This document shows, in pieces, positions 6,895 to 23,592 of a DNA stretch of 24,000 bases. The notes under the pieces are model-generated. The model saw only the letters and a list, made by a program, of their open reading frames with translations, did not search any database and was not told the DNA's origin. The stretch comes from Bacilli bacterium (lineage in GTDB: Bacteria; Bacillota_I; Bacilli_A; RFN20; CAG-826): assembly GCA_017940265.1 (NCBI GenBank), contig JAGAYY010000025.1, forward strand, positions 182,177 through 206,176, given 5' to 3'. A program made the translations under genes and the position numbers. Each line of letters begins with the position of its first letter. The first letter of the stretch is position 1.

Positions 6895-7860
6895 ATGTGT
6901 TTATTTATTGACAAGAAAGATTGGTTTGTAGCTAAGAAAGATATTACATGCTACAAAGTCCTGGAAGGTAATGAGAAGGATGGATATCGTACTCCGTGTC
7001 AGGGTTGGCCAGTAAAACCAGGAACTACTCTTATCCCTGATGAATCAAGCCCCGTCATTGAGGAGAATGGATTTAAGTATGAATTAGGGGCAGGAGTTAT
7101 TCACGCTTATACTGGAATAGTCGAGGTTTCTGGCTCTCATATCTTCAAGGCTATAATCCCTGAAGGTACTAAGTTCTGGATACAATCTGACTTAACCGAA
7201 GTAGCAGCCGAGAAATTAATCCTGACCACTGAAGAATTAACCTCGGGAAAATGCCTGCCTGATTTAAAAGACCACCTAACACCGAAACTTAAGGTCTATA
7301 CTTCGGCAGGAGAAATAACCGAGGTAGGAAAAATCAGTGGTAGCGATATTCTTGGGGTTGTAACTTCTGGTGGTAAGATTGTTGGGGTGGAAGTTAGTGA
7401 GAGAATGTATTTTTCTGAATCTAACCCCAAGTATAGTGGGAAAACCTATGATAAACCATTCGAAGATATGGATGGCCTAGGAAACTGTGCCGAGATCAAG
7501 GAGAAAAGTACTGGAAAATTACTGGCTATTGAATGGGCTAAGTCGAAAGGCGGATATCTTCCATCATCCGGAGAACTTAAGGAAGCATTTATGGAGTTAT
7601 TTGAAATTAACTCAGTTTTAGTGATGGTCGGGAAGAAACCTATTATGTCAGATCGTTATTTCTGGACTTCTTCGATGAAGAGTTCTGAATCTATATGGAT
7701 CTGTAGCAGTAGTGGCGGTTACTATTGGGACAACTGGTGCTACTGCAGTTGGAACACCGCGGCTGTGTTCTTCCTTTCTTATCCAGCTCTCTTGAAAAAT
7801 AAGATGCAGGAGAAAGGAGCGAAATCATTGAATGATGGAGCGAAAAAGTTGACCGCCTGA
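6895..7860 (+). CDS. hypothetical protein with DUF1566-like C-terminal region
   Basis: GYLPSSGELKEAFMELF...DRYFWTSS...GGYYWDNW resembles the DUF1566/Lcl-C pattern (W.LPt..EL..l....YWSSt). Confidence 0.7.
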   Translation: MCLFIDKKDWFVAKKDITCYKVLEGNEKDGYRTPCQGWPVKPGTTLIPDESSPVIEENGFKYELGAGVIHAYTGIVEVSGSHIFKAIIPEGTKFWIQSDLTEVAAEKLILTTEELTSGKCLPDLKDHLTPKLKVYTSAGEITEVGKISGSDILGVVTSGGKIVGVEVSERMYFSESNPKYSGKTYDKPFEDMDGLGNCAEIKEKSTGKLLAIEWAKSKGGYLPSSGELKEAFMELFEINSVLVMVGKKPIMSDRYFWTSSMKSSESIWICSSSGGYYWDNWCYCSWNTAAVFFLSYPALLKNKMQEKGAKSLNDGAKKLTA

Positions 7861-7873
7861 GAAAGGCTGAAAA

Positions 7874-7886
7874 CCTTATATATGTA
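7874..7886 (+). promoter_or_regulatory. CCTTAT-box with no ORF behind it
   Basis: CCTTATATATGTA. No usable start codon follows (ATG-TAA). It precedes the ORF-free structured region. Confidence 0.4.
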
Positions 7887-8515
7887 ATAGAAAATTACCT
7901 AAAGCTGGGTTCTGTGTAAAACGGAATTCCAGCTTTTGATTCTGTTCTTATAAAAGAACTATGGAGTAGCTTATGCGAAGGTGCTGTGAGCGAGAGTTAC
8001 TCCGAGAGTATGGAGATAAGAACCATACCATCGTCTGAGCGATGTAAAAGTGTCACAGGATCAGAAACAATAGACTGAGGTGTTGTTAACTCGGTATCGT
8101 GAGATTTTCTGATTATTGGCTTAGAGCGGGAAAAATAAATGGTTTAACACAAAATTCATAGAACTTAATCTAGGGTAATATTAATAGCCCAGATAATATA
8201 AGTTTATGAATAATATAAAACAAAAAATCCTAGTATCGAAGAGGTACTAGACCTGGTAGGGTGATGGTTTCTTGGAAGACAGGAAATCTACAGTGCCCTA
8301 ATCAACACACGTAACCTAGGAACCTGGGTGAACTAATGGTGATCAAATCTCTGTATGGATTTGACTATCAGAGGAGTGTGAATTAACTTTGATTGGGTAT
8401 ACAGACCTGATCCCATGCTTAGAGGAATATTTCTGAAGAGGTTATATTCAATAGGTGAGGAGTTAATTAAGAAAGACCTGCGGAGAGAAGCCACAGGCGC
8501 AATCATTTTAAACTT
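7887..8515 (+). ncRNA. candidate long structured RNA or long 5' leader (class unknown)
   Basis: About 630 nt without a credible ORF. My hand count is about 44% G+C over 7961-8120. Helices: 7963-7968/7998-8003, 8008-8013/8023-8028, 8029-8033/8040-8044, 8060-8067/8106-8113 (8 bp), 8230-8237/8243-8250. Several helices contain T:G pairs that only work as U-G in plus sense. Confidence 0.35.
7903..7938 (+). terminator. terminator-like hairpin after 6895..7860
   Basis: agctgg (7903-7908) / ccagct (7929-7934), 20-nt loop, then tttg. The large loop lowers confidence. Confidence 0.45.
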
Positions 8516-8539
8516 TTGAGACAAAGTATATATAAATAT

Positions 8540-8767
8540 ATGAAACAAACAGAAAAAGAGATTCAGAGGCTATCCGACATGGTTAGTGCTGATCAACAAG
8601 TTTATGAGTTTCATCGTAGTGTTATAGATTTAGTCGGTCAGAAAGTAAATGGAGTCTGGACCACTGAAGCATTGAAGGTAGTCGGATATGCAACGCGTCA
8701 GGCAAGTAAGTTAGCTACTAGAATCAATACTAACAAACGATTACTCAAAGAACTTCAAGCAGGTTAA
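8540..8767 (+). CDS. hypothetical protein
   Basis: The ORF track starts at TTG 8516. The first ATG is at 8540 (MKQTEKEIQRL...). Confidence 0.65.
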   Translation: MKQTEKEIQRLSDMVSADQQVYEFHRSVIDLVGQKVNGVWTTEALKVVGYATRQASKLATRINTNKRLLKELQAG

Positions 8768-8805
8768 GGACCAACCTGCTTCCGAAACAAATAAATGGAT
8801 AAATT

Positions 8806-9003
8806 ATGAACAATACAACAGCAATTATCCTATGTGTATGGGCAATATCCTTATACATAGTCTCTAGACAGTATGACGAAGATGATAAGCTTAGTGTATG
8901 GAGAATAATACTTCTAGTACTTATTGCTCCACTCATTGCGCTTCATAAAATCTTTAGTGTTATTGCGATTATGGTATTAATTGAACTTAGACATAGTAGA
9001 TAA
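8806..9003 (+). CDS. small membrane protein (65 aa)
   Basis: ORF track. Two hydrophobic segments. Preceded by the leader ccgaaacaaataaatggataaatt. Confidence 0.6.
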   Translation: MNNTTAIILCVWAISLYIVSRQYDEDDKLSVWRIILLVLIAPLIALHKIFSVIAIMVLIELRHSR

Positions 9004-9004
9004 A

Positions 9005-9142
9005 ATGGAAAAGAAGACAACATTTTGGGATTTCGCAATTAAGAATCCCATTTCCTCCATAGTGATAGTAGGTCTGGTAACGGACTGTGTGTGGAGGGTA
9101 GCAAACTTAGTATTAAACTATTTAGGGGAGACGGAGGAATAA
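9005..9142 (+). CDS. small membrane protein (45 aa, not in ORF track)
   Basis: My translation: MEKKTTFWDFAIKNPISSIVIVGLVTDCVWRVANLVLNYLGETEE. It starts 2 nt after the previous stop. Confidence 0.45.
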   Translation: MEKKTTFWDFAIKNPISSIVIVGLVTDCVWRVANLVLNYLGETEE

Positions 9143-9178
9143 TCTCCCCATCAAAACGGACAAACAAATGGACAAATT

Positions 9179-9346
9179 ATGTATGCGAAGATTGTTAACA
9201 CATTAGAAACAGTAGTAGCCACCAGTATTGGTACGGCTATTGGCTCTGCAGTGTATGAGATAGGCAGAGCATGGATAAACTATAGATTCCTAGATGAGGA
9301 ATCTCCTGGTTATAAATTTAAAAATGGATTCGTATGGGAGAATTAA
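9179..9346 (+). CDS. small hydrophobic protein (55 aa, not in ORF track)
   Basis: My translation: MYAKIVNTLETVVATSIGTAIGSAVYEIGRAWINYRFLDEESPGYKFKNGFVWEN. Leader acaaacaaatggacaaatt resembles that of 8806. Confidence 0.45.
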   Translation: MYAKIVNTLETVVATSIGTAIGSAVYEIGRAWINYRFLDEESPGYKFKNGFVWEN

Positions 9347-9468
9347 TCAGAGATGTCGTTGGTATATTCTGGGGTGGAGTTATCAACGGTTTCAGAATTG
9401 GGGCAACAAACCTAGCGAAAGATCTTCTCATCGAATCTATTGAAAAACAAAAAGAGCGGATGGACTAA
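9334..9468 (+). CDS. small hydrophobic protein (44 aa, not in ORF track)
   Basis: My translation: MGELIRDVVGIFWGGVINGFRIGATNLAKDLLIESIEKQKERMD. 13-nt overlap with the previous ORF. Confidence 0.4.
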   Translation: MGELIRDVVGIFWGGVINGFRIGATNLAKDLLIESIEKQKERMD

Positions 9469-9507
9469 GAAACCAGCTCTTATCCGAAACAAATAAAGAA
9501 CAACAAA

Positions 9508-9708
9508 ATGAACAAATTAATAGCGTGGATTATAGCAACTATAATATATTCGTTGCTGATCCTAGGTATGGCTGGTGATTTCGGCCAAGAGACAAAGAAG
9601 TTTGCCACATGGATATTTCTTAGTGCATTAGCTTTCGGAGTATCGTATTGGTGGAAACCTTTAATCAGGCTCATTAAGAGATTATGGGCAGAAAGAAATG
9701 AAGAATGA
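9508..9708 (+). CDS. small membrane protein (66 aa)
   Basis: ORF track. Two hydrophobic helices. Leader ccgaaacaaataaagaacaacaaa. Confidence 0.6.
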   Translation: MNKLIAWIIATIIYSLLILGMAGDFGQETKKFATWIFLSALAFGVSYWWKPLIRLIKRLWAERNEE

Positions 9709-9719
9709 ATTGATATTGG

Positions 9720-9763
9720 AATTAGAGTGGTTACTATAATAGGTGATCACTCTAATTTTCTTG
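9720..9763 (+). terminator. rho-independent terminator
   Basis: Perfect 10-bp stem aattagagtg (9720-9729) / cactctaatt (9748-9757), then ttcttg. Confidence 0.7.
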
Positions 9764-9813
9764 TCGTTTAGTAATTTTAATCTAGACCTGATGAGCTCGT
9801 AAGAGCGAAACAG
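9761..9813 (+). ncRNA. hammerhead self-cleaving ribozyme, type III topology
   Basis: UUGUC|GUUUAG-uaauuuuaau-CUAGAC-CUGAUGA-GCUC-GUAA-GAGC-GAA-ACAG. All core nucleotides are present: C3-A9 = 9788-9794, G12A13A14 = 9807-9809, A15.1 9810 pairing U16.1 9764, and C17 9765. Stem I is 6 bp and stem II is 4 bp with a GNRA loop. Stem III is 4 bp and open. Confidence 0.8.
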
Positions 9814-9904
9814 CTATAGTATTAACTGCAGCTAAAGTCTGCGACCTATATTATAGAATATCAATAAATTTCAAGATATTATTAACAATTAAAAAGAACA
9901 AATT

Positions 9905-10195
9905 ATGGATAAAGAGAAAGTAAATTTAAAACAATGGCTTAAAAAGAATTGGCCAAGTGTTCTAGTGAGTGGGGTTAGTGTAATGGCTGTAGTTTATGAA
10001 TATTACCTCATCACAGAACTCAAGCGAATGAATGATGCCCTAGTTGCGGAGAACCGTGATTTAGAAAGAAAAAGTCTTGATCTAGCGGGTCAAGTCAGGG
10101 CAAGTGAACGAGAGAATCGACAGTTAACCCGAGAAATTGGAAACTTAAATTATCAACTCGGGAAAGTCGTTTCTAAAGAACATTTAAAACTTTAA
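9905..10195 (+). CDS. single-pass membrane protein with coiled coil (FtsB/DivIC-like or i-spanin-like architecture)
   Basis: TM segment WPSVLVSGVSVMAVVYEYYLI, then a heptad-like region LKRMNDALVAENRDLERKSLDL... Confidence 0.65.
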   Translation: MDKEKVNLKQWLKKNWPSVLVSGVSVMAVVYEYYLITELKRMNDALVAENRDLERKSLDLAGQVRASERENRQLTREIGNLNYQLGKVVSKEHLKL

Positions 10196-12904: not shown

Positions 12905-13660
12905 TTAATAAGGATTTCCAGGGTCCTCTATTACAACCGGATAACCTGAAACGTTATAAAATTCAGTCTCACCAATTACTCTATGTTCTGGTTTATGGAT
13001 ATGGCCGAAAATATGTATCCTAGGTTTTACCCTTCTGACGGTTTCTGATAATTCTAATGATCCTGGTTCTTCAAATCCATAATCTCCTAGACTTTCCTTA
13101 ATACATCGGAGGCCATAGAATCTAGGAGCATCATGAGTAACTAGGATATCAAGTCCGGAAGGTATCATCTTTAGGTCTTCTCTCCTTCCTCTCGTCCACT
13201 GAAAAGCCCATCCAGAACCACAGATAGTCCAAGGATTTCCCCAGATCCTACGTCCTTCATATTCTATCTCATAGTCGACCAGTACCTCGATTCCAGTTCC
13301 CAACCGATTTCCTCTTTCTCTCTCAATCCAAAAGTCATGATTACCGGGAACAATCACGAACTTGTATGCGGCCGGAAAGAAATTTGGCAGCTCACTCAAG
13401 AATTCCCTCATTTCTTTCTTTTGTTCAGAGTAGATATCGCTGCCACATATATCACCGGCCAAGATAACTAGTTCGGCATTCCATTCCCGGTCCCAATTTT
13501 TCCAGGTTCCGTGTATATCAGAAACAGCAGCTATAGTAAGAGGACCAATATAAGGAGTGCTATCAGGTAAGGTCCTCCCCAGAATAGTATTACCCTCAGT
13601 TGCCATAGAATCAAGTAACATAATAACAATACTAAGATTAAGTTTTTAAACTTCTTTTTC
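12905..13660 (-). CDS. calcineurin-like metallophosphoesterase, probably with N-terminal signal peptide or anchor
   Basis: Motifs SDIHG, AGDICG, PGNHD, VTHDAP, GHIH. The in-frame ATG at 13660 (no intervening stop by my translation) adds MKKKFKNLILVLL upstream of the track's TTG start at 13621. The CCTTAT box abuts that ATG. Confidence 0.8.
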
Positions 13661-13706: not shown

Positions 13707-15746
13707 CTAAGATATGGTAGTCTTTTTATCTGCTACTACTGCTTTCTTGATGATATTACCTAGTAGTTTCGGTAATTCATCTACTCCATGTCTTAAGTCT
13801 ATCACATTTTTAAACATGTCTTCAGCTCCACATACATTGTCAATAGTTACTTGAATGACAGAAAAACCATCATTCTCAAGTTTCTTAACATTTTCACGAG
13901 TATCATGTCTAGCAGCCAAACCTCTATAGTCGCAGGCACTAGGTTCACCATCACTAATAACAAACATAGTAACTGGTGATGAGGTAAATTTTCTTACTCT
14001 TTTACCTACTTCATACAGTGCGACACCATCTCTATTTTCATATAATCTTCTTCCACACATTCCGAGAGCATAAGGATCAGAATGTTTTTTTCCTTCCTTA
14101 TAAATTCGAATATCGGTAGAACCAGTATGAGTAATATCGGCAGTATGACCATAAATATAGAGATCTACTCCTGGCAAACTCCCTAAGGCTTCATTCAGGA
14201 GTATAGCGGCTTCTCTTGCTTTGGTCATCTTAGTAGAATAAGAGTATCGATATTCTTTACTATATTCTACCCAATCCGTTCCCATACTACCAGATTCATC
14301 TATTACAACGCAGACAGTACTCTTATTTGTTCTAACCTGTCCTTGTCGAATATAAACCTGTGGTACTCCTTGATATGCTTCGGCCAGTTTTGCTGTATCT
14401 AGGATTCCAGATCTACATCCATAAATATTAAAATCATAGTTTCGATCTGTATTCTTGATAAGTTTCTTAATGGCAGGAACAGATTTCTGAATTTGATTAG
14501 CAACTCGTCTATAATTCTCTGCATTTCCTTTGATATTTTCGAAATAGGTGGATTTCTTTTCCCCACGTTCGGCCATGCCAGTAATTAGTTTAGATAATAT
14601 AGAGCTATCTTTGATCTTACTAGAAATTTCAACTCCAGATATTGCACTTCCAGAATCAGAATCAGATCCATAATTTACTTTAACAAATCCCATTTCAAAT
14701 GCTTTTCCATATTTAGATAGCATTTTAACAACGTGACCAAGGCTAAGTTTCTTATCAGAACCTTTAGTTTTTAGTTCAAGATCCGGGAAAGTAGATATTA
14801 TTTCTTTATAAATTCCTAATCCTGCAATACAAGCTTCTTTAGTTGATTGTGGTAGAGGATTTAAGAATTTCTGAATAGCCTTATACTGTTCAGAATATTT
14901 CTCTAAGGTATCTTCGTCTAGATCTTCCGGATATCTGATCAACCTGAAGAGATTATTCATGAAAAGCTTAAATTGTACTTCTTTCTCGAAGGCAGAGTAA
15001 ATATTATTATTGCTATACTTAATAAAGTTTTTATATTGATAACTTTTAGCAATATCTATAAACTCTGTATATCCCGGACGTTCTTGAAGTAGTAAATTTT
15101 CAATTCTTTCATCTTCAATAAGATTAATTAATGAGATAATGAACAAAATACAATCTTCAAGTTTAGTAGTCTTACCATCAATAGTTATGCTTCTGGTACA
15201 AAGTCTATTAGAAAAATCCGTTAAGACTTTATACTCAGTGAACTTCAGATGAGAAGCTTCATGTACTCCTAAGCCACAACAGATATTAATTTTCTCTGAA
15301 TCACTATATCCAGATTCATCAAGTATTTTTGTTGGAATGAATACACGTCTAGATCCATCTTTAAGTCCTCCTTCTATTTCAGAACCATCACAAGATAATT
15401 GAATTTTAACATTGAAAGGAAAATCCAAAATAACAATCATATCTCTAGTAGATCTATAGACCTTACTAAGAAGTTCCTGTGCTTTATCAATATCGGTTCC
15501 GCTTGATCTTCCATACCAACTACTACTGCTTGATACAGTCTCTGACAGTCTAGAAGTTGAATATCCCAAAGAAGATTTATATCTAGATTTATAGGCATCT
15601 TTCCAAGAATAATCTTCTTTTTTAGATGAACCCCACCAATCCCATCCAGATGAAGAAGAGTCAGAGTCATAATAATCATCGTCATCATCTCTGCTACTTC
15701 TCCAATAACCAGAATAATATCCTTTTGACCACCAAGGTTTTGACAT
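13707..15746 (-). CDS. CobT-like vWA-domain protein with central HExxH motif and low-complexity N-terminus
   Basis: C-terminal vWA domain: MIDAS VVIDESGSMG, IYGHTAD, ENRDGVALYEVGKRV, FVISDGEPS (CobT-like spacing). HEASH at nt 15249-15263 with IEDERIE at 15099-15116. The N-terminal 85 aa are rich in S/D/W/Y. Confidence 0.85.
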   Translation of the reverse strand: MSKPWWSKGYYSGYWRSSRDDDDDYYDSDSSSSGWDWWGSSKKEDYSWKDAYKSRYKSSLGYSTSRLSETVSSSSSWYGRSSGTDIDKAQELLSKVYRSTRDMIVILDFPFNVKIQLSCDGSEIEGGLKDGSRRVFIPTKILDESGYSDSEKINICCGLGVHEASHLKFTEYKVLTDFSNRLCTRSITIDGKTTKLEDCILFIISLINLIEDERIENLLLQERPGYTEFIDIAKSYQYKNFIKYSNNNIYSAFEKEVQFKLFMNNLFRLIRYPEDLDEDTLEKYSEQYKAIQKFLNPLPQSTKEACIAGLGIYKEIISTFPDLELKTKGSDKKLSLGHVVKMLSKYGKAFEMGFVKVNYGSDSDSGSAISGVEISSKIKDSSILSKLITGMAERGEKKSTYFENIKGNAENYRRVANQIQKSVPAIKKLIKNTDRNYDFNIYGCRSGILDTAKLAEAYQGVPQVYIRQGQVRTNKSTVCVVIDESGSMGTDWVEYSKEYRYSYSTKMTKAREAAILLNEALGSLPGVDLYIYGHTADITHTGSTDIRIYKEGKKHSDPYALGMCGRRLYENRDGVALYEVGKRVRKFTSSPVTMFVISDGEPSACDYRGLAARHDTRENVKKLENDGFSVIQVTIDNVCGAEDMFKNVIDLRHGVDELPKLLGNIIKKAVVADKKTTIS

Positions 15747-15771
15747 ATGTAGTTTTTATTTAATTAAAAGT

Positions 15772-15793
15772 TTAGCCCCGGTTAAAGGGCTAA
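15772..15793 (-). promoter_or_regulatory. intercistronic hairpin between the AAA+ and vWA genes
   Basis: ttagccc (15772-15778) / gggctaa (15787-15793). In minus sense it is followed by ACUUUUAAUU. Confidence 0.4.
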
Positions 15794-15798
15794 TATTA

Positions 15799-16950
15799 TT
15801 AATATGATGAGATAGTCTTATAGATTGTACTTCTCTCACCGTCTGTAGTAGTACCTTCATATAATGGAAGGTAGATCATTTCCATAGCTTTACCCAAGTC
15901 CCATCCATCAACCACTAAGTTAGCTACCATAAGGGTTTCTCGGATTGATAGTGTACTAGAGATTTCCTGCTTGTTGTACAAGCTTCTAATATTATTAGCA
16001 ACCTTAACAATCATTTCAGAATCTTTCTCCTCCAGGCCGGTTCTCTTGCATAAAACAGCTTTTTCTTCAGTGCTAGGTATACATCCTAATTCTAAGGGGA
16101 AGAATCTATTAACAAGTGCACGGTCCATTTGATTAGTTCCACTATATTCAGAACCTACATTAGCGGTAGCAATAAATGTAACTTCGGGATGAATCTTAAT
16201 CTCACGAATATCTTTACCACCTGCAACCTCAATACTTAAGGTTCGACGATCATCAAGACACGGGAACAGCACATTATTAGACGAAAGTGCTGCTCGGTTA
16301 AGTTCATCTAGGAGAATTACACAAGGTTCCTGAATAACTTGAGTGAATTTGGCATAATCAAAAATAGATTTGCCACCTTCAAGTCTATGAACACCTAAAA
16401 GACTGCTGATTGGGTCAATAATAGATCCCATATCAAAAACATGAAGAGGGATATCCAATCTTGTACATACTTCTTTAACACAACTAGTCTTACCAGAACC
16501 AGTCGGGCCCACAATTAAAGTATTAACATGCTTCTTAATATTCCTCACCAGAAGATTCCAGTCATTTGAAGACATGTAGAATCCATCTTTCTTAGAGGAT
16601 GGGCAGACTAGTTTCGTATCTGACATAATCTTTGACAGAATAGTAGATTCTTTCATTGGATCTACGAAGGTTGTCTTGAATGTTTTATCATATTCAGCAA
16701 TCTCCGCTCTCATTCTGCCATCAAGTCGTCTGAAATTCTTAGTGGTATAGTATTTTTTACCAAACGAAAGATTCAAGGCATCACTTACAAAAATTGTGCC
16801 AATTGGAAATTTGCTTCGAATCTCTGTAGGACAACTAACCATAAGATTTTCATCTACTGGAGTTCCGTCAGATAATTTTTGACCAGGTAATGCATTAACT
16901 CTGATCTTAGATTTCTTTTTATCTTCTACAGTTTTAAAGTAATAATACAT
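15799..16950 (-). CDS. MoxR/CobS-like AAA+ ATPase (AAA_5 type)
   Basis: Walker A VGPTGSGKT, Walker B VILLDELNRA, sensor-1 FIATAN, DRALVNRF. There is an extra N-terminal domain of about 140 aa. Confidence 0.85.
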   Translation of the reverse strand: MYYYFKTVEDKKKSKIRVNALPGQKLSDGTPVDENLMVSCPTEIRSKFPIGTIFVSDALNLSFGKKYYTTKNFRRLDGRMRAEIAEYDKTFKTTFVDPMKESTILSKIMSDTKLVCPSSKKDGFYMSSNDWNLLVRNIKKHVNTLIVGPTGSGKTSCVKEVCTRLDIPLHVFDMGSIIDPISSLLGVHRLEGGKSIFDYAKFTQVIQEPCVILLDELNRAALSSNNVLFPCLDDRRTLSIEVAGGKDIREIKIHPEVTFIATANVGSEYSGTNQMDRALVNRFFPLELGCIPSTEEKAVLCKRTGLEEKDSEMIVKVANNIRSLYNKQEISSTLSIRETLMVANLVVDGWDLGKAMEMIYLPLYEGTTTDGERSTIYKTISSY

Positions 16951-18098: not shown

Positions 18099-18118
18099 TT
18101 TGTCTTTCTATTTTTATT
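18086..18118. terminator. bidirectional rho-independent terminator
   Basis: agaaagaca (18086-18094) / tgtctttct (18101-18109). The loop contains the stop TAA 18096-18098. T-run downstream and A-run upstream, between convergent genes. Confidence 0.7.
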
Positions 18119-18560
18119 CCCCAGGTGCTTCTATGAATTCATCAAATTCAGTAGGATCAATCGTATCCATTTGTTTATACATGCGCTTGACTACTTCTTC
18201 TGGTATTTGTGAAGCTCGTCGGGATAAACAAGTCTCTAGGCTGGTACACATCTTGACACCAATTACATGATAACCTAACTCTCGTAATTTCTTCAAAAGG
18301 GGTTTTCGGAAATATGGATTAACATTAGTATTATCAAGGGCAAAGTTAGCACCAGCATCAGATAACTCAGCTAATCTTTTTTCATGAAGTTCAGTAACTT
18401 TATCTTCTTGGGCCTTATCACCCAAAAATTTTTCACCTTCCTTACAATAACCGAGCTCAATTCTAATATCGTCTCGACTTATCCCGGGAATTCCTTGTGA
18501 TTTTACCCAGGTCGATTTTCCCGACCCAGGACAACCTAACATTACAAATGCTCTTTTCAT
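18114..18560 (-). CDS. polynucleotide 5'-kinase-like P-loop protein (T4 Pnk kinase-domain homologue, kinase only)
   Basis: MLGCPGSGKSTWV...ISRDDIR...LDNTNVNPYFRK...IPEEVVKRMYKQM parallels T4 Pnk GCPGSGKSTW, NRDDYR, SDTNLNPERR and VPIDVLRSMYKSM. At 148 aa it has no phosphatase domain. Confidence 0.8.
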   Translation of the reverse strand: MKRAFVMLGCPGSGKSTWVKSQGIPGISRDDIRIELGYCKEGEKFLGDKAQEDKVTELHEKRLAELSDAGANFALDNTNVNPYFRKPLLKKLRELGYHVIGVKMCTSLETCLSRRASQIPEEVVKRMYKQMDTIDPTEFDEFIEAPGE

Positions 18561-18696: not shown

Positions 18697-18885
18697 TCAC
18701 CATAATTTACAACAAAATCCAAATTCATATACGCATAATAGTCTGAGAATGATCTTTACTCCACCTCTCGGCATCATACCAGTTCTCCAGACAGACCATA
18801 AGCCACATTTACTGTTTGCAAATTCTTTAATATTTACAAACCAACCTTTTAACATATTTTCTACATTTTCATATTGTTGATTCAT
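18697..18885 (-). CDS. hypothetical small protein
   Basis: ORF track. The CCTTAT box abuts its ATG, which supports it as a real gene. Confidence 0.5.
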   Translation of the reverse strand: MNQQYENVENMLKGWFVNIKEFANSKCGLWSVWRTGMMPRGGVKIILRLLCVYEFGFCCKLW

Positions 18886-18915: not shown

Positions 18916-18928
18916 CCTTATAAATAGT
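18916..18928 (+). promoter_or_regulatory. CCTTAT-box abutting start codon
   Basis: CCTTATAAATAGT followed by ATG 18929. Divergent partner of 18886-18898. Confidence 0.5.
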
Positions 18929-19246
18929 ATGATGAACGTTATTAAATTATTTGGTTTTAATAAACCTAAAAAAGTATTTAATGCAGAGTCAGCACTTAAT
19001 CTCTATGAATATGGAGATGCCAGTGTTACTCTTGAAAGGGCTGTTAAATCCAGAATAAATGATATTAACAGCTGTATTCGGTATAATGCTAGAGGCAGAA
19101 AAAGATCATTTGTCTCTATCCTAACCGATGAAGATAAAGAATTAATAAATCGAGTTACCAAACACTTCGAAGATCAGGGCTTTTTCGTTAAAGTCCAGGA
19201 ATATGAAGAAATTCCTGAGAATAAGTTTCTGGTAATTGGATGGTGA
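18929..19246 (+). CDS. hypothetical protein
   Basis: ORF track. Confidence 0.7.
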   Translation: MMNVIKLFGFNKPKKVFNAESALNLYEYGDASVTLERAVKSRINDINSCIRYNARGRKRSFVSILTDEDKELINRVTKHFEDQGFFVKVQEYEEIPENKFLVIGW

Positions 19247-19251
19247 GAAAA

Positions 19252-19264
19252 CCTTATTAATGAA
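19252..19264 (+). promoter_or_regulatory. CCTTAT-box variant
   Basis: CCTTATTAATGAA, 17 nt upstream of ATG 19282. Confidence 0.35.
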
Positions 19265-19281
19265 TTTAAAACAATAAAATT

Positions 19282-20034
19282 ATGACATTTATTTGGTTAA
19301 GTATTGCGATTGTAGTATTTGCAATCTTGTGGGTAAAGTTTAGAATTGCTAAAAACAAACCCGCAGATCAGAGAAGTGCTTTTGAGAAAATATTAGCAAC
19401 TCTGAGTGTTAAACATCGTGAGAATATGGAAAATGCTGCGAATGCTATCCGTACTCCCGAAGTATCTAAGACTGAGGCTATCCAGAAAACAAAGGATGCT
19501 ATCAATGAGCTTAAGGCTGGTTATCAAAAGCAGCTTGCTGAGATGATCAGTAATAAAGATAAGCTCGAGGATATGCTTCCTAAGTTGAAAGAAAAACCTG
19601 GTGTCTGGGAAGGCAAGGCACGCAAGGCTAAGAAAGACATGGAAAAGGAAACTGATCCTGAATTAAAGGAACAGTTTAAGGAAAACGCCATGTTGTATCT
19701 ATCCTTGAAGGCTAAGGCAACTGAGCGTATTAATAAGACTGAACAGTACCTTAAAAAGTCTCAGACAGCTATCACTAAAGCAAGAGTAAGTTACGAAAGT
19801 AAGCAGGCTGTCTTGGAGGATATGTTAATTGACCTTGAGTCTTTGTCTACTGCTATTATTAATGTTAAGTTCAATACCAATATGGAATTGATTAAGAGCT
19901 TACAACGTGAATGTGTAGATAGTTTACGCGAGAGAAATGCTGAGATTGAAGCATCTAACATTATCAACGGAAATGATAATCCGGCAGCTAGTGTAGATCA
20001 GAGTAATTTTGAAGATGAATTCGATAAGCTCTAA
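19282..20034 (+). CDS. membrane-anchored coiled-coil protein, PspA/IM30-like
   Basis: N-terminal TM FIWLSIAIVVFAILWV, then long helices. VWEGKARKA...EQFKENAMLYLSLKAKATERI... parallels PspA EWQEKAELAL..EDLARAALIEKQKL. Acidic C-terminal FEDEFDKL. Confidence 0.45.
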   Translation: MTFIWLSIAIVVFAILWVKFRIAKNKPADQRSAFEKILATLSVKHRENMENAANAIRTPEVSKTEAIQKTKDAINELKAGYQKQLAEMISNKDKLEDMLPKLKEKPGVWEGKARKAKKDMEKETDPELKEQFKENAMLYLSLKAKATERINKTEQYLKKSQTAITKARVSYESKQAVLEDMLIDLESLSTAIINVKFNTNMELIKSLQRECVDSLRERNAEIEASNIINGNDNPAASVDQSNFEDEFDKL

Positions 20035-20040
20035 ACAACT

Positions 20041-20688
20041 ATGGCAGTAAATTTAGTTAAAGGACAACGAATTAGTCTATCAAAGTCATTTGTTGGTCAG
20101 ACGGTATACGGAATAGGGTTACGTTGGGATGTAGGTGATAAAAACTACGACCTTGATGCAATGGCCCTTCTTCTAGATAATACAGTAGACCAGGGCGGTA
20201 AGGTTATTAATGATGATTTTGTTTGCGCTTATTTCAACAATGACAGAACACGTGATAACTTTGATAAGATAACATTTGCTCTTCCAGAAGGTGGTATTGG
20301 TTTCCAGAGTATTGATGGAAGTGTGAAGAGTTTTGGAGATTCAAGAGATGGAGTAGGCGATGGTGACGATGAGAAACTAGAACTTGACCTCTCTAAAGTG
20401 GATCCTAGAGTGAAATCTATTCTTGTATTGGTTAATATCTATACGGACGATCTCTCTTCTAGTACACCAAACTTTGGACAGGTTAAGAACGCTGCTATCC
20501 GACTCTATAAGGGAAAATCTGATATTCCTGAGCTAGTCTTTGAGCTCAGTGAGGATTTCAGTACTGAGAGAAATCTTGAGTTCGTTGAGATTTATAATCA
20601 CAATGGAGAATGGAAGTTCAAAGCTCTCGGAGATGGTACTAACCTAAGTTTTCCAGAAGAGCTAAGAAAATTTGGCATAAGTTGTTGA
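20041..20688 (+). CDS. terD: TerD-domain stress-response protein
   Basis: MAVNLVKGQRISL, GLRWD...YDLDAMALLLD, Ca-binding GDSRDGVGDGDDEKLELDLSKVDPRVKSILVLVNIY, FGQVKNAAIRLY, EFVEIYNHNGEWKFKALG. This matches the canonical TerD layout along the full length. Confidence 0.9.
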   Translation: MAVNLVKGQRISLSKSFVGQTVYGIGLRWDVGDKNYDLDAMALLLDNTVDQGGKVINDDFVCAYFNNDRTRDNFDKITFALPEGGIGFQSIDGSVKSFGDSRDGVGDGDDEKLELDLSKVDPRVKSILVLVNIYTDDLSSSTPNFGQVKNAAIRLYKGKSDIPELVFELSEDFSTERNLEFVEIYNHNGEWKFKALGDGTNLSFPEELRKFGISC

Positions 20689-20692
20689 GGTT

Positions 20693-20730
20693 AAGAGGTT
20701 TATTCCTTCGGGGATGACCTCTTTCTTTTT
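20693..20730 (+). terminator. rho-independent terminator
   Basis: aagaggt (20693-20699) / acctctt (20717-20723), with an inner C(UUCG)G, then tcttttt. Confidence 0.75.
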
Positions 20731-20749: not shown

Positions 20750-20790
20750 AAAAAAAAAATAGGTTGCTACCCTCTATAAAAGAGTAGCAA
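20750..20790 (-). terminator. rho-independent terminator overlapping the stop codon
   Basis: Minus sense: TTGCTAC (20790-20784) / GTAGCAA (20770-20764), followed by a T10 run (plus-strand A-run 20751-20760). Confidence 0.65.
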
Positions 20791-21226
20791 TCCAATCCCA
20801 ATCAACTACCATGCAAACTTCTCCGAAACGATTCTTCACCGGCCGAGTTTTAATGCCGAGGTTATGATCATCGATATAGTAGTCGGCATATATCTTACGG
20901 CCGGGATCCTGCGTTTCGAGTTCCCACCATGGATTTTCTCCTATCGCATCAAACTCTAAACCCCTCTCCTTACAAAATTCAATGACTGGCGTAAGAAGAT
21001 CAACGGTCCCTGGTTTTCCGGCGCGTCCAGTTTCTTTGAGATATTCGCGAAGTTCTGGACAATAGATAGGATATTCGGTAGTTCTTTGTGTTATAAGAAT
21101 TAATCGATCACCTCTTTCGCGTATCCCTTTCAAAGTAGATATCGCGCCATCTATCTCTGGACCGATATAAGGCCATTCATCTACGCATATGGTATTATCA
21201 AAATCAATCCCGTAAGTCTTTCCCAT
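20774..21226 (-). CDS. HAD-superfamily phosphatase (DxDxT)
   Basis: The ATG at 21226 gives MGKTYGIDFDNTICVDEWPYIGP...LILITQR...YADYYIDDHNLG. These are HAD motifs I-IV. The track's longer start adds an implausible extension. Confidence 0.75.
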   Translation of the reverse strand: MGKTYGIDFDNTICVDEWPYIGPEIDGAISTLKGIRERGDRLILITQRTTEYPIYCPELREYLKETGRAGKPGTVDLLTPVIEFCKERGLEFDAIGENPWWELETQDPGRKIYADYYIDDHNLGIKTRPVKNRFGEVCMVVDWDWIATLL

Positions 21227-21328
21227 ATATAATACAATATTTAATACCTTCCCAAACAATAACACATGGATAACTTTCAGGCCTTTCTTCACCCACAAGA
21301 CCTAATCCCTCTTTTACTCCGAGGTAAT

Positions 21329-21865
21329 CTATAATTGTGTGGAGTGTTCTTTTATCCATCCCAGAATTTTTGCTATAATAATAAATTCAGCCTCATCCTT
21401 CTCAACCTCGGCATAGTCTATCTTCCATCTATCTAGAAAATCTTTAAATCTTTTATCAACTTGAATAGCCTCTTCTTCAGTTTGTTCTCTACCCTTAACG
21501 TTATAAGAAGTGCTACGTCTTAGATAAAAATTCATATTATTGAAAGCTTTGAATTGATCCACTACGAAGTCAGCAAATTTCTGATTTTCTGTTTTATCAT
21601 AGACTGCTGGATTAAGAAGACTAGAGTCACAGATAATAACCTGAACTTTTCCTACTAATCGATTTATTCTGTGAAGTTGTTTTCCGAATACATAAATAGA
21701 ATCATCCATAACCTTCCATGATTCTTCCCATACTTTTTCTTTAACATATTCTGGGGCCATCTCAACTTCTACTCCTAGAACCTTAAGGCGAGCAAAGAGC
21801 TGTGCCATCAATGTAGATTTACCAACTCCAGGTCCTGCCATTAGATTAACTATTAACGTATCCAT
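21329..21865 (-). CDS. P-loop NTPase, nucleoside/nucleotide-kinase-like (AAA_28/NadR-like)
   Basis: Walker A MAGPGVGKSTL, then APEYVKE (compare the NadR EYGRE motif), and IICDSS as a Walker B-like strand. Confidence 0.6.
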   Translation of the reverse strand: MDTLIVNLMAGPGVGKSTLMAQLFARLKVLGVEVEMAPEYVKEKVWEESWKVMDDSIYVFGKQLHRINRLVGKVQVIICDSSLLNPAVYDKTENQKFADFVVDQFKAFNNMNFYLRRSTSYNVKGREQTEEEAIQVDKRFKDFLDRWKIDYAEVEKDEAEFIIIAKILGWIKEHSTQL

Positions 21866-22649: not shown

Positions 22650-22975
22650 ATCATCTTTGATTTAACATACCTAACTGCCTTCTGATACTCTGAATCAAGT
22701 TTATCTAATGTGCGATAAACCATAGATCTATAATGTTGGATTGCATCCTCCTCGGTGTAGTGTAATTCGGCAGGTACACAACAACCATCAGAAGTATAGA
22801 TATAGTTAGAGGTCGGAGTTGGAGTAGTTTTAACCTCAACAATCTTTGGTTTAACTATTCTCATTGCCTTTTGACCTGTTCTTGAGAATTCTATACATGA
22901 TCTCCAAACTTCCTGTCCTTTCTGAAGTTGTCTAGCCTCTTCGTATGTCATCCTTCCAGCATATGTTTTGACCAA
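22646..22975 (-). CDS. hypothetical protein (tandem paralogue B)
   Basis: LHYTEEDAIQHYRSMVYRTLDKLDSEYQK aligns with paralogue A. Confidence 0.7.
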   Translation of the reverse strand: MVKTYAGRMTYEEARQLQKGQEVWRSCIEFSRTGQKAMRIVKPKIVEVKTTPTPTSNYIYTSDGCCVPAELHYTEEDAIQHYRSMVYRTLDKLDSEYQKAVRYVKSKMI

Positions 22976-23592
22976 GTTCTGAAAGATAGTCCATAGGTTT
23001 TCTTCTTGGCTTCGGCGATTATTGTTTCGAGAGGTATCAGAAAACTACCCTCCCTTTTAGCCACCTCAGAATCAAAACCAATATCCATACGTAGATCAAT
23101 CTTCGAGGAATTATTAAGTGAATCTATATTTCCATGACAATGACCATGTATGTTGAGAGAACCATGATATTTATGATTCCATTCTAAGATAGGATAGTGT
23201 GATAGAGTAAGTTGTATTTCCTCATCTCCCATTTTTAGGTTAATATCTAGAAGATCAGCAGTCAACTTAAAATAGCGCTGTAAGATACCTCCTGAGTAAT
23301 ACAAACGTTCCTTATCATGGTTACCAATGATTTTATACGTTTGTTTAGGTAGGAGGTTACATAGCGCTTCCATTTCTGACTGCTCTGTTTTCCAAAATAA
23401 GTCTCCTAAGTCGAATAGGATATCTTCCGGCTCGAGTGTATCCTTAAGAGTTTGTAGGATATATTCATTCATTTCCGTGACATCCTTAAAAGGTCGGCCA
23501 TTATTAAATTTAAGTATATTTTCATGACCATAGTGAAGGTCTGACATAAACCAAACCCTCTCTGGATTTACAAGTTTATTCGGGAATTTCAT
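22948..23592 (-). CDS. metallophosphoesterase (COG4186-like phosphoesterase)
   Basis: VWFMSDLHYGH, LGDLF, IIGNHD, LSHYP, HGHCHG. Confidence 0.8.
   Translation of the reverse strand: MKFPNKLVNPERVWFMSDLHYGHENILKFNNGRPFKDVTEMNEYILQTLKDTLEPEDILFDLGDLFWKTEQSEMEALCNLLPKQTYKIIGNHDKERLYYSGGILQRYFKLTADLLDINLKMGDEEIQLTLSHYPILEWNHKYHGSLNIHGHCHGNIDSLNNSSKIDLRMDIGFDSEVAKREGSFLIPLETIIAEAKKKTYGLSFRTWSKHMLEG

Follow-up and report, generated by a model that had tools for sequence, protein, structure and literature searches.

A candidate calcium-linked membrane-integrity module of a jumbo gut phage that pairs a membrane-anchored PspA-like protein with TerD

In this study, we have analysed a stretch of 24,000 nucleotides of the contig JAGAYY010000025.1 (assembly GCA_017940265.1, positions 182,177 to 206,176 of the forward strand), which in its full length is referred to as the window, with a focus on two adjacent genes encoding a membrane-anchored protein of 250 residues, which is probably a remote homologue of PspA and Vipp1, and a Ca2+-binding TerD protein of 215 residues. 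We lean towards the view that this two-gene core constitutes a Ca2+-linked membrane-integrity module of a jumbo gut phage. The view is founded on the assignment of both proteins and on the conservation of their order in six lineages, where a PspA-like gene, whose product shares 32-93% identity with the protein of the window, is followed by TerD in the context of replaced flanks. The exact 250-residue protein is present on 19 contigs with lengths of up to 268 kb, and its source is therefore a jumbo phage, which probably infects gut bacteria of the Bacteroidota. In the window, the pair is part of a unit that, as claimed in a preliminary description of this DNA, contains open reading frames (ORFs) of 105, 250 and 215 residues on the same strand (Table 1).

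Assignment of the two core proteins

The downstream gene of the pair had been described as unmistakable, and as judged from its sequence, it is certain that the 215-residue protein is a TerD with an intact Ca2+-binding loop. It matches the Pfam family PF02342 with 141 bits (cut-off 25.3, E 3.9e-41) as well as phrog_5698, and among solved TerD structures it can be aligned to 3IBZ with an E-value of 9.6e-30 and to 2KXT with one of 1.6e-27. The loop GDSRDGVGDGDDE, which encompasses residues 99-111 and has the acidic Ca2+-loop form GDN-x-x-G-x-GDGDDE, pairs position by position with GDNRTGEGDGDDE of Klebsiella TerD (2KXT) and with GDNITGEGEGDDE of 3IBZ. TerD is annotated in 28 deposited phage records, mostly of jumbo phages, and its presence in a phage is thus by itself not new.

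As suggested by profile comparison and predicted fold, the 250-residue protein is a probable remote homologue of PspA/Vipp1 (ESCRT-III superfamily) rather than a standard member. Its family is unannotated and uncultured and resides on phage-like contigs where the context was examined. A word-indexed search of 5.8 billion proteins returned six relatives. When 1.84 billion cluster representatives were searched exhaustively with a profile, about 48 clusters (50% identity) with end-to-end matches were retrieved, nearly all of them 240-260 residues long, and one more protein was gained from a further large search based on the alignment of the family. Where sources are listed, the members originate from metagenome assemblies only, none has an NCBI or UniRef source and 'hypothetical protein' is the sole name that they carry. 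The 50,697 phage records of INPHARED contain neither a megablast match to the region nor a tblastn match to the 250-residue protein, a scan of IMG/VR with this single sequence gave no match and BLASTP against E. coli PspA found nothing. The family members share the motifs R-T-P-E and KA..K, in addition to a hydrophobic helix at the N-terminus and an acidic E-D-E-F-x-K-L at the C-terminus, and the motifs quoted in the preliminary description, VWEGKARKA, EQFKENAMLYLSLKAKATERI, FEDEFDKL and the TerD loop, are all found in the translations.

The relationship to PspA was investigated by profile-profile comparison with hhalign, with a 43-sequence alignment on the side of the family. The PspA/Vipp1 profiles were assembled from E. 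coli PspA, Synechocystis Vipp1 (with its sequence taken from a PDB alignment), two Firmicutes PspAs, one actinobacterial plasmid PspA, gammaproteobacterial genomes and PspA genes on IMG/VR contigs; a large protein search with E. coli PspA provided near-identical enterobacterial sequences only, and a genome scan gammaproteobacterial PspA only. The probability of the match amounts to 27% (P 6.6e-4) for a profile of eight sequences, to 56% (P 1.1e-4) for one of 22 mostly gammaproteobacterial sequences and to 93% (P 3.4e-7, score 52.5, 201 columns) for one of 19 diverse PspA/Vipp1 sequences, which reaches 95.9% in global mode. In the best run, columns 41-252 of the family pair collinearly with residues 3-215 of PspA, at a sequence identity of the 250-residue protein to PspA/Vipp1 of about 12-15%. 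In this alignment, P59 of the family motif RTPE, which is invariant across seven close relatives, meets the invariant P25 in the AEDPxK of PspA, and WEGKARKA is placed over WQEKAELA, NAMLYL over LARAAL and the C-terminal FEDEFDKL over DDELAALKA. With the final profile, none of 300 shuffled controls attained the real score. Their means were 12.3 upon shuffling of single columns (standard deviation 2.1, maximum 17.1), 16.5 for blocks of seven columns (2.7, 23.3) and 20.4 for blocks of 14 columns (4.2, 37.3), and the reversed alignment scored 19.0, which places the real score 7-13 standard deviations over the heptad-preserving shuffles. The probability is 92.3% upon removal of the gammaproteobacterial PspAs and 51% upon removal of the IMG/VR sequences, and two clades of the family recognize each other with 100%.

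Predicted structures are supportive of this assignment, if not decisive. An AlphaFold2 model of the 250-residue protein based on the 43-sequence alignment (predicted local distance difference test, pLDDT, of 85.6, exceeding 90 in the hairpin) contains helices at residues 2-25, constituting the transmembrane (TM) segment, at 33-56, resembling alpha0, at 59-122 and 126-187, resembling the hairpin of alpha1 and alpha2-3, at 194-230, resembling alpha4, and at 240-249, which form the conserved acidic C-terminal helix with the sequence FEDEFDKL. In a Foldseek search of this model against the PDB, the first five ranks are all occupied by Vipp1/PspA assemblies (E 2.7e-3 to 9e-3), and the ESCRT-III protein CHMP1B is found at ranks 7, 11, 16 and 19. 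The TM-scores range from 0.23 to 0.48, with the fragment 1-144 of E. coli PspA (4WHE) at 0.48 with a root mean square deviation of 5.1 A over 121 columns, and the matches to Vipp1 and PspA are interspersed with further proteins that contain long helices. A first model, which was based on an alignment of seven sequences (pLDDT 75.7), gave uninformative Foldseek output. The fold search in BFVD returned nothing significant; a 'PspA/IM30 family protein' of the Acinetobacter phage ME3 (A0A172Q0S7) ranks eighth with an E-value of 0.054.

The N-terminal TM helix and the long helices that had been noticed from the sequence were both recovered, the former as a single hydrophobic helix with hydropathy peaks of 2.2-2.6 and the latter, outside the TM segment, in both AlphaFold models. 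The TM helix precedes the alpha0-equivalent helix in all 43 members of the family, where it is preceded by 0-6 residues with a mean net charge of about 0 and followed by 15 residues with an average net charge of +3.5. Following the positive-inside rule, this charge pattern predicts the PspA-like domain to reside in the cytoplasm and thus on the same side as TerD.

Linkage of the PspA-like gene to TerD

The preliminary description had regarded linkage of TerD to the upstream gene in related genomes as a test of its proposal, and such linkage is found in six lineages. The arrangement is also contained on contigs identical to the window, and in general between one and five TerD genes follow the PspA-like gene. 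There is one TerD gene in the closest relative (L005), with a PspA-like protein of 93% identity, and in two lineages at 50% identity (L006 and L003/L004), whereas three tandem TerD genes are present in L001/L002 (49%). At 32% identity, the PspA-like gene of L108 is followed by two TerD genes and a P-type Ca2+-ATPase carrying the motif DKTGT, with gaps of 19, 11 and -7 nucleotides. L111-113, a lineage of 37% identity, was encountered in 78 blocks of the collection; here, the PspA-like gene is followed first by a single unrelated gene and then by four TerD genes. An orthologue of TerD is located 3' of the PspA-like gene in L005, L006, L003, L001 and L108, and the identity to the proteins of the window declines in parallel, with values of 93, 50, 50, 49 and 32% for the PspA-like protein and of 85, 47, 54, 47 and 39% for TerD. 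A metallophosphoesterase is the sole neighbour that recurs near the pair in other lineages.

Two of these loci display extended gene runs. The tight same-strand run of L108 (L108:4645-9107, on a 62-kb contig of Logan SRR18398404) ends with the Ca2+-ATPase, which is 806 residues long. The run of L111-L113:5028-10615 consists of a metallophosphoesterase, the PspA-like protein, a 208-residue protein without assigned function, TerD, a 61-residue ORF, two further TerDs, a 104-residue ORF and a fourth TerD; an NAD synthase is encoded upstream, and in L113 an extra RRXRR-domain gene is inserted nearby.

In the window, the genes of the unit are separated by 35 nucleotides (105- and 250-residue genes) and 6 nucleotides (250-residue and TerD genes). 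Since the upstream neighbour (18114-18560, minus strand) is divergent and the downstream neighbour (20774-21298, minus strand) convergent, the three genes form an isolated unit. Its opening gene is a variable accessory rather than part of the core. The encoded 105-residue protein has no match in Pfam, NCBIfam or PADLOC and sub-threshold matches only in PHROGs, it has counterparts in L005 (43% identity) and, weakly, in L003 (26%, E 0.004), and its place is occupied by a 460-residue gene in L001 and L006. The divergent intergenic region contains a 62-residue ORF on the minus strand (18697-18885), which may be a remnant of a 184-residue gene of L005 (9047-9601).

The transcription signals that had been proposed for the unit fared differently. 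The terminator described as strong does contain a hairpin followed by the T-run UUUCUUUUU, but with a folding free energy of -17.9 kcal/mol, a z-score of -1.9 and 7 of 200 shuffled sequences folding equally well, it is of moderate quality only. It is absent from the output of a consensus terminator scan, which lists the minus-strand terminator of the convergent neighbour at 20764-20790, whose z-score of -4.0 is better. The promoter box claimed at position 18916 is unsupported. It consists of a single TATAAAT-like string 4 nucleotides before the ATG that does not recur as a motif within the window, it was not flagged in a sigma-70 scan, where sites in the window are no more numerous than in shuffled sequence, and a search at this position for a Bacteroidota-type -33/-7 promoter found none.

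Table 1. Features of the three-gene unit and of its neighbourhood, in coordinates of the window.
Feature	Position	Strand	Basis or remark
105-residue ORF, function unassigned	18929-19246	+	variable opening gene of the unit, outside the conserved core
250-residue membrane-anchored PspA/IM30-like protein (probable)	19282-20034	+	profile-profile and fold evidence
N-terminal TM anchor, residues 2-25, predicted N-out/C-in	19285-19356	+	hydropathy, charge pattern
PspA-like helical domain (predicted)	19378-20028	+	second AlphaFold2 model, hhalign
215-residue TerD-domain protein, cytoplasmic, Ca2+-binding	20041-20688	+	Pfam PF02342, structure alignments
Ca2+-binding loop GDSRDGVGDGDDE, TerD residues 99-111	20335-20373	+	alignment to 2KXT and 3IBZ
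Hairpin and T-run, likely intrinsic terminator of the unit	20693-20730	+	RNA fold
Metallophos phosphoesterase	12905-13621		
679-residue vWA protein and AAA_5/CbbQ_C ATPase	13707-16950	-	MIDAS motif
P-loop protein, AAA_33	18114-18560	-	
HAD phosphatase	20774-21298	-	
P-loop protein, AAA_28	21329-21865	-	
Second phosphoesterase	22948-23592	-	

Proposed mechanism and alternatives

The mechanism that we infer for the pair concerns the maintenance of the host membrane during infection. As judged from the sequences, the upstream gene probably encodes a divergent member of the PspA/Vipp1 group whose single TM helix anchors it in the cytoplasmic membrane of the host and whose domain comprising alpha0 to alpha5 faces the cytoplasm, and the downstream gene encodes a soluble Ca2+-binding TerD. 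By analogy to PspA and Vipp1, the anchored protein may form polymers at the cytoplasmic side of the membrane that stabilize or reseal it, which would keep the membrane energized against leaks caused by injection, by premature holin action or by membrane-targeting abortive-infection effectors. TerD could couple the anchored protein to the cytoplasmic Ca2+ concentration, which would rise upon membrane leakage, either by sensing or buffering of Ca2+ or by binding to the anchored protein, and the P-type Ca2+-exporting ATPase found in the same gene run of one related phage would clear the ion. A PspA/TerD module that protects the host membrane had already been put forward in the preliminary description, whose core identities and pairing are retained here, but not the arguments that it had derived from the gene neighbourhood and the promoter.

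A bolder version of this mechanism, which we advance as a tentative idea of low probability, assumes a self-contained Ca2+-gated repair system, where TerD, upon an influx of Ca2+ through a leak, would activate a TM-anchored ESCRT-III/PspA polymer or direct it to lesions, and where in some phages the Ca2+-ATPase would reset this polymer. In eukaryotes, ALG-2 recruits ESCRT-III to wounds during Ca2+-triggered membrane repair. If correct, the gated system would thus be an analogue of this process in a prokaryotic virus, and it would assign a concrete biochemical role to TerD, whose function has been unclear for decades.

Several observations weigh against the interpretation of the pair as a membrane-integrity module with a PspA-like component. 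The match to PF04012 that had been suggested as a check of the 250-residue protein was not obtained, and the protein and six relatives likewise had no Pfam match to Snf7 or TelA, even at E <= 10, which is why we consider the membership in the PspA family to be remote instead of standard and an identity as TelA to be ruled out. There is also no match in NCBIfam or PADLOC and nothing meaningful in PHROGs, and searches of PDB sequences (phmmer, hmmsearch) returned generic coiled-coil noise only, with Vipp1 at E 1.3. The hhalign probability of 93% is under the usual comfort level, and single clades of the family reach 63% and 21% only when compared to PspA. None of the Foldseek E-values is below 1e-3, and long helical hairpins match easily. 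Canonical PspA, for which a permanent anchor is atypical, is peripheral and binds via its N-terminal amphipathic alpha0, whereas here a true TM helix is located ahead of the equivalent helix. With respect to the pairing, the unrelated 208-residue gene separates the PspA-like gene from TerD in L111, and three distant family members of at most 25% identity on phage-like contigs (L011, L012 and L109) are not accompanied by TerD, which is therefore not required for the basic function of the anchored protein. Finally, co-transcription of the three genes in the window is suggested by their spacing alone. The likeness to PspA/IM30 that had been claimed for the 250-residue protein thus holds with respect to the profile-profile comparison and the five best fold matches, but not with respect to curated profiles.

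Some of these observations would equally be accounted for if the 250-residue protein were a mere coiled-coil tether or scaffold, devoid of PspA-type polymerization or membrane repair, that keeps TerD at the inner membrane to sense or buffer Ca2+ and that resembles PspA only by convergence of helical hairpins. The absent match to a curated PspA profile, the Foldseek matches, which exceed an E-value of 1e-3 and include helical proteins of the chemoreceptor, BAR-domain and axonemal kinds, and the atypical anchor would all be compatible with such a role, for which the conserved acidic C-terminal motif could offer a docking site. Still, we regard this explanation as doubtful, in light of an alignment to PspA that is collinear and full-length and that superimposes motif on motif in both families, of a score far outside the range of heptad-preserving shuffles and of top five fold matches that are specifically Vipp1 and PspA. 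Moreover, since family members are also retained on phage-like contigs that have no TerD, the anchored protein has a function of its own. For the same protein, the combination of an N-terminal TM helix and a coiled coil resembles Rz, and phrog_2466, an Rz-like spanin, as well as Pfam Phage_lysis are matched faintly (E 0.08 and 4.1, respectively), which would hint at a factor in lysis or superinfection exclusion. Such a factor would be a type II membrane protein whose coiled coil lies in the periplasm and which either resembles an i-spanin or regulates a holin, and TerD would be unrelated to its action. These matches are far below significance, the similarity to PspA spans the whole soluble domain, the charge pattern predicts a cytoplasmic C-terminal domain in 43 of 43 members, opposite to an i-spanin, and neither an o-spanin lipoprotein nor an endolysin or holin is encoded adjacent to the gene. 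An i-spanin identity was accordingly rejected on the basis of predicted topology and context, and a role of this general kind appears very improbable.

The two genes could alternatively be independent 'morons' that were acquired from gut bacteria and that came to lie side by side in an auxiliary region of a jumbo phage. The TerDs of the jumbo gut (Jug) phages of Bacteroides and Phocaeicola group with those of Bacteroides, Phocaeicola and Prevotella, which suggested horizontal transfer (Chen et al., Sci Adv 2026, PMC12880540), the region of the window is full of unrelated auxiliary enzymes and distant members of the family lack TerD. An independent acquisition is nevertheless unlikely when considering that six lineages with identities as low as 32% have retained the order of the PspA-like gene and TerD with their neighbours replaced, that only 6 nucleotides separate the two genes in the window and that a similar pair of Jug phages was reported to be co-transcribed (PMC12880540). 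Since the PspA-like family is found, where sources are listed, in metagenome assemblies only and in no named bacterial genome, an origin from the host is also not evident.

The Ca2+-linked membrane-integrity module thus is the reading that we favour. It would be relevant in several respects. TerD is widespread in bacteria and phages with a mechanism that is unsettled, and its conserved partnership with an anchored PspA-like protein, which in one phage extends to a Ca2+ pump, suggests that TerD is linked to calcium and membrane integrity in a way that can be tested. The family itself would define a branch of PspA that is confined to phage-like contigs of uncultured origin and permanently anchored in the membrane, and since this branch is missed by curated profiles, PspA-like functions in viromes are probably under-annotated. 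On a general level, the pairing suggests that jumbo phages actively maintain the membrane of their host during infection.

Gene neighbourhood and relation to known systems

The preliminary description had emphasized a vWA protein, two phosphoesterases, a HAD phosphatase and two P-loop kinases in the vicinity of the pair as partners known from bacterial ter loci. These enzymes and domains are indeed present (Table 1) but do not compose a Ter-type module. The 679-residue protein, whose N-terminal part abounds in S, D, Y and W, carries a C-terminal vWA MIDAS (DESGS ... SDGEP), and it adjoins an AAA_5/CbbQ_C ATPase in a MoxR/CobS-CobT-like pair. A Pfam scan of 23 of the 29 window ORFs of at least 90 residues, all larger ones included, found no TerA, TerB, TerC, TelA, PP2C phosphatase or Ser/Thr kinase, and PADLOC detected no TerY-P system in the window and had no match for any of the three genes of the unit. 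In view of the pairing of the vWA protein with AAA_5/CbbQ_C and the absence of Ter partners and of TerY-P, the neighbourhood thus is not a Ter-associated module, and a TerY-type role of the vWA protein was rejected on account of its MoxR/CobS-like partner. With the exception of the recurring metallophosphoesterase, the vWA, kinase and phosphatase neighbours are not conserved with the pair elsewhere. The AAA_5/CbbQ_C ATPase shows weak matches to models of the IetA/IteA anti-phage ATPases, and to the right of the window, immediately outside it, a second pair consists of AAA_5 and VWA_CoxE (L013).

The HAD phosphatase is similar to the BT0820 family of Bacteroides, and in L003:1-8107 orthologues of the AAA_28 P-loop protein and of the phosphoesterase are found near genes of a nicotinate phosphoribosyltransferase (NAPRTase) and an NAD synthase, which suggests that the HAD, AAA_28 and phosphoesterase genes belong to an auxiliary region for NAD salvage rather than to a set of Ter-linked enzymes. 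Elsewhere in the window, about 2 kb (7860-9905) contain no ORF of at least 90 residues on either strand, and scans of the window for tRNAs and Rfam families, including this segment, were empty.

Among known systems, the bacterial ter loci (terZABCDEF, TerY-P and modules with phosphoribosyltransferases (PRTases) and HAD enzymes) share with the window a standard TerD domain with its Ca2+ loop, but differ in the partners, where the window has neither TerB, TerC, TerA and TelA nor a TerY-P triad and where its vWA protein is of the MoxR/CobS-CobT-like type. A contrast is provided by the Acinetobacter jumbo phage vB_AbaM_ME3 (L110, NC_041884, 206436-218696), which contains a genuine Ter-type run of vWA, a TerC-like membrane protein, TerD, a PRTase, HAD and a second PRTase. 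The PspA-like protein of ME3 is not encoded within 6 kb of its TerD.

With PspA, Vipp1 (IM30) and LiaH (PF04012), the 250-residue protein would, according to its model, share the order of helices, with alpha0, the hairpin of alpha1 and alpha2-3, alpha4 and alpha5, and it shares the motifs P25/P59, W-x-x-KA and the C-terminal acidic/Leu pattern. It differs from them by its additional TM anchor and by the absence of PspBC/PspF and LiaI-type partners. Its partner would instead be TerD; a comprehensive survey of the partners of phage shock protein (PSP) systems mentions neither TerD nor calcium nor viruses. PspA was found in the TerC interactome of E. coli in a proteomic study, as cited in PMC11994780. 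Two records with true PspA that are deposited as 'Bacteriophage sp.' (L008, MT835668.1, and L009, MT839532.1) were dismissed; they look like Firmicutes-type chromosome fragments, encoding tryptophanyl-tRNA synthetase (TrpRS), PcrA helicase, a RumA-type methyltransferase and Tgt, and as bacterial-looking sequences they thus offer no evidence for phage-encoded PspA. On ten IMG/VR contigs with bona fide PspA, there was neither a TerD within 3 kb nor similarity of the PspA to the 250-residue family. Contigs of this database with lengths of 77-361 kb (L101-L106, e.g. 3300045988_174371) are putatively viral and encode actinobacterial-type PspA of 236-243 residues, none with TerD nearby.

The resemblance to ALG-2/ESCRT-III repair is one of logic only, with a soluble Ca2+-binding protein next to a putative membrane remodeller of the ESCRT-III superfamily. 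TerD is a beta-sandwich unrelated to the EF-hand protein ALG-2.

A similar pairing is found in the Jug phages described by Chen et al. (PMC12880540). Three terD genes were contained in each of the three Jug genomes that were analysed for transcription, terD adjoins a 'pspA-like' gene in a region transcribed as an operon at high depth, and the phages contain a highly expressed Ca2+-translocating P-type ATPase, which, unlike in the arrangement of L108, is preceded by a small gene of 77-91 residues. The pairing of terD with a pspA-like gene is thus already reported for these phages, in one sentence without analysis. Both cases have in common a jumbo phage from gut metagenomes, a terD beside a pspA-like gene and a Ca2+-ATPase within the phage group. 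The exact protein of the window on contigs of up to 268 kb and its conserved adjacency to TerD agree with the Jug type as described in the paper, and a single terD in the window contrasts with three per Jug genome. The widespread lineage L111-113 with its multiple TerDs may be of the published Jug-phage type. Beyond the report on Jug phages, which includes neither the TM anchor nor evidence for remote homology, the wider spread of the family or the direct adjacency of TerD and the Ca2+-ATPase, the present analysis contributes evidence for homology, a predicted topology, an account of how far the family extends and the linkage to a calcium pump.

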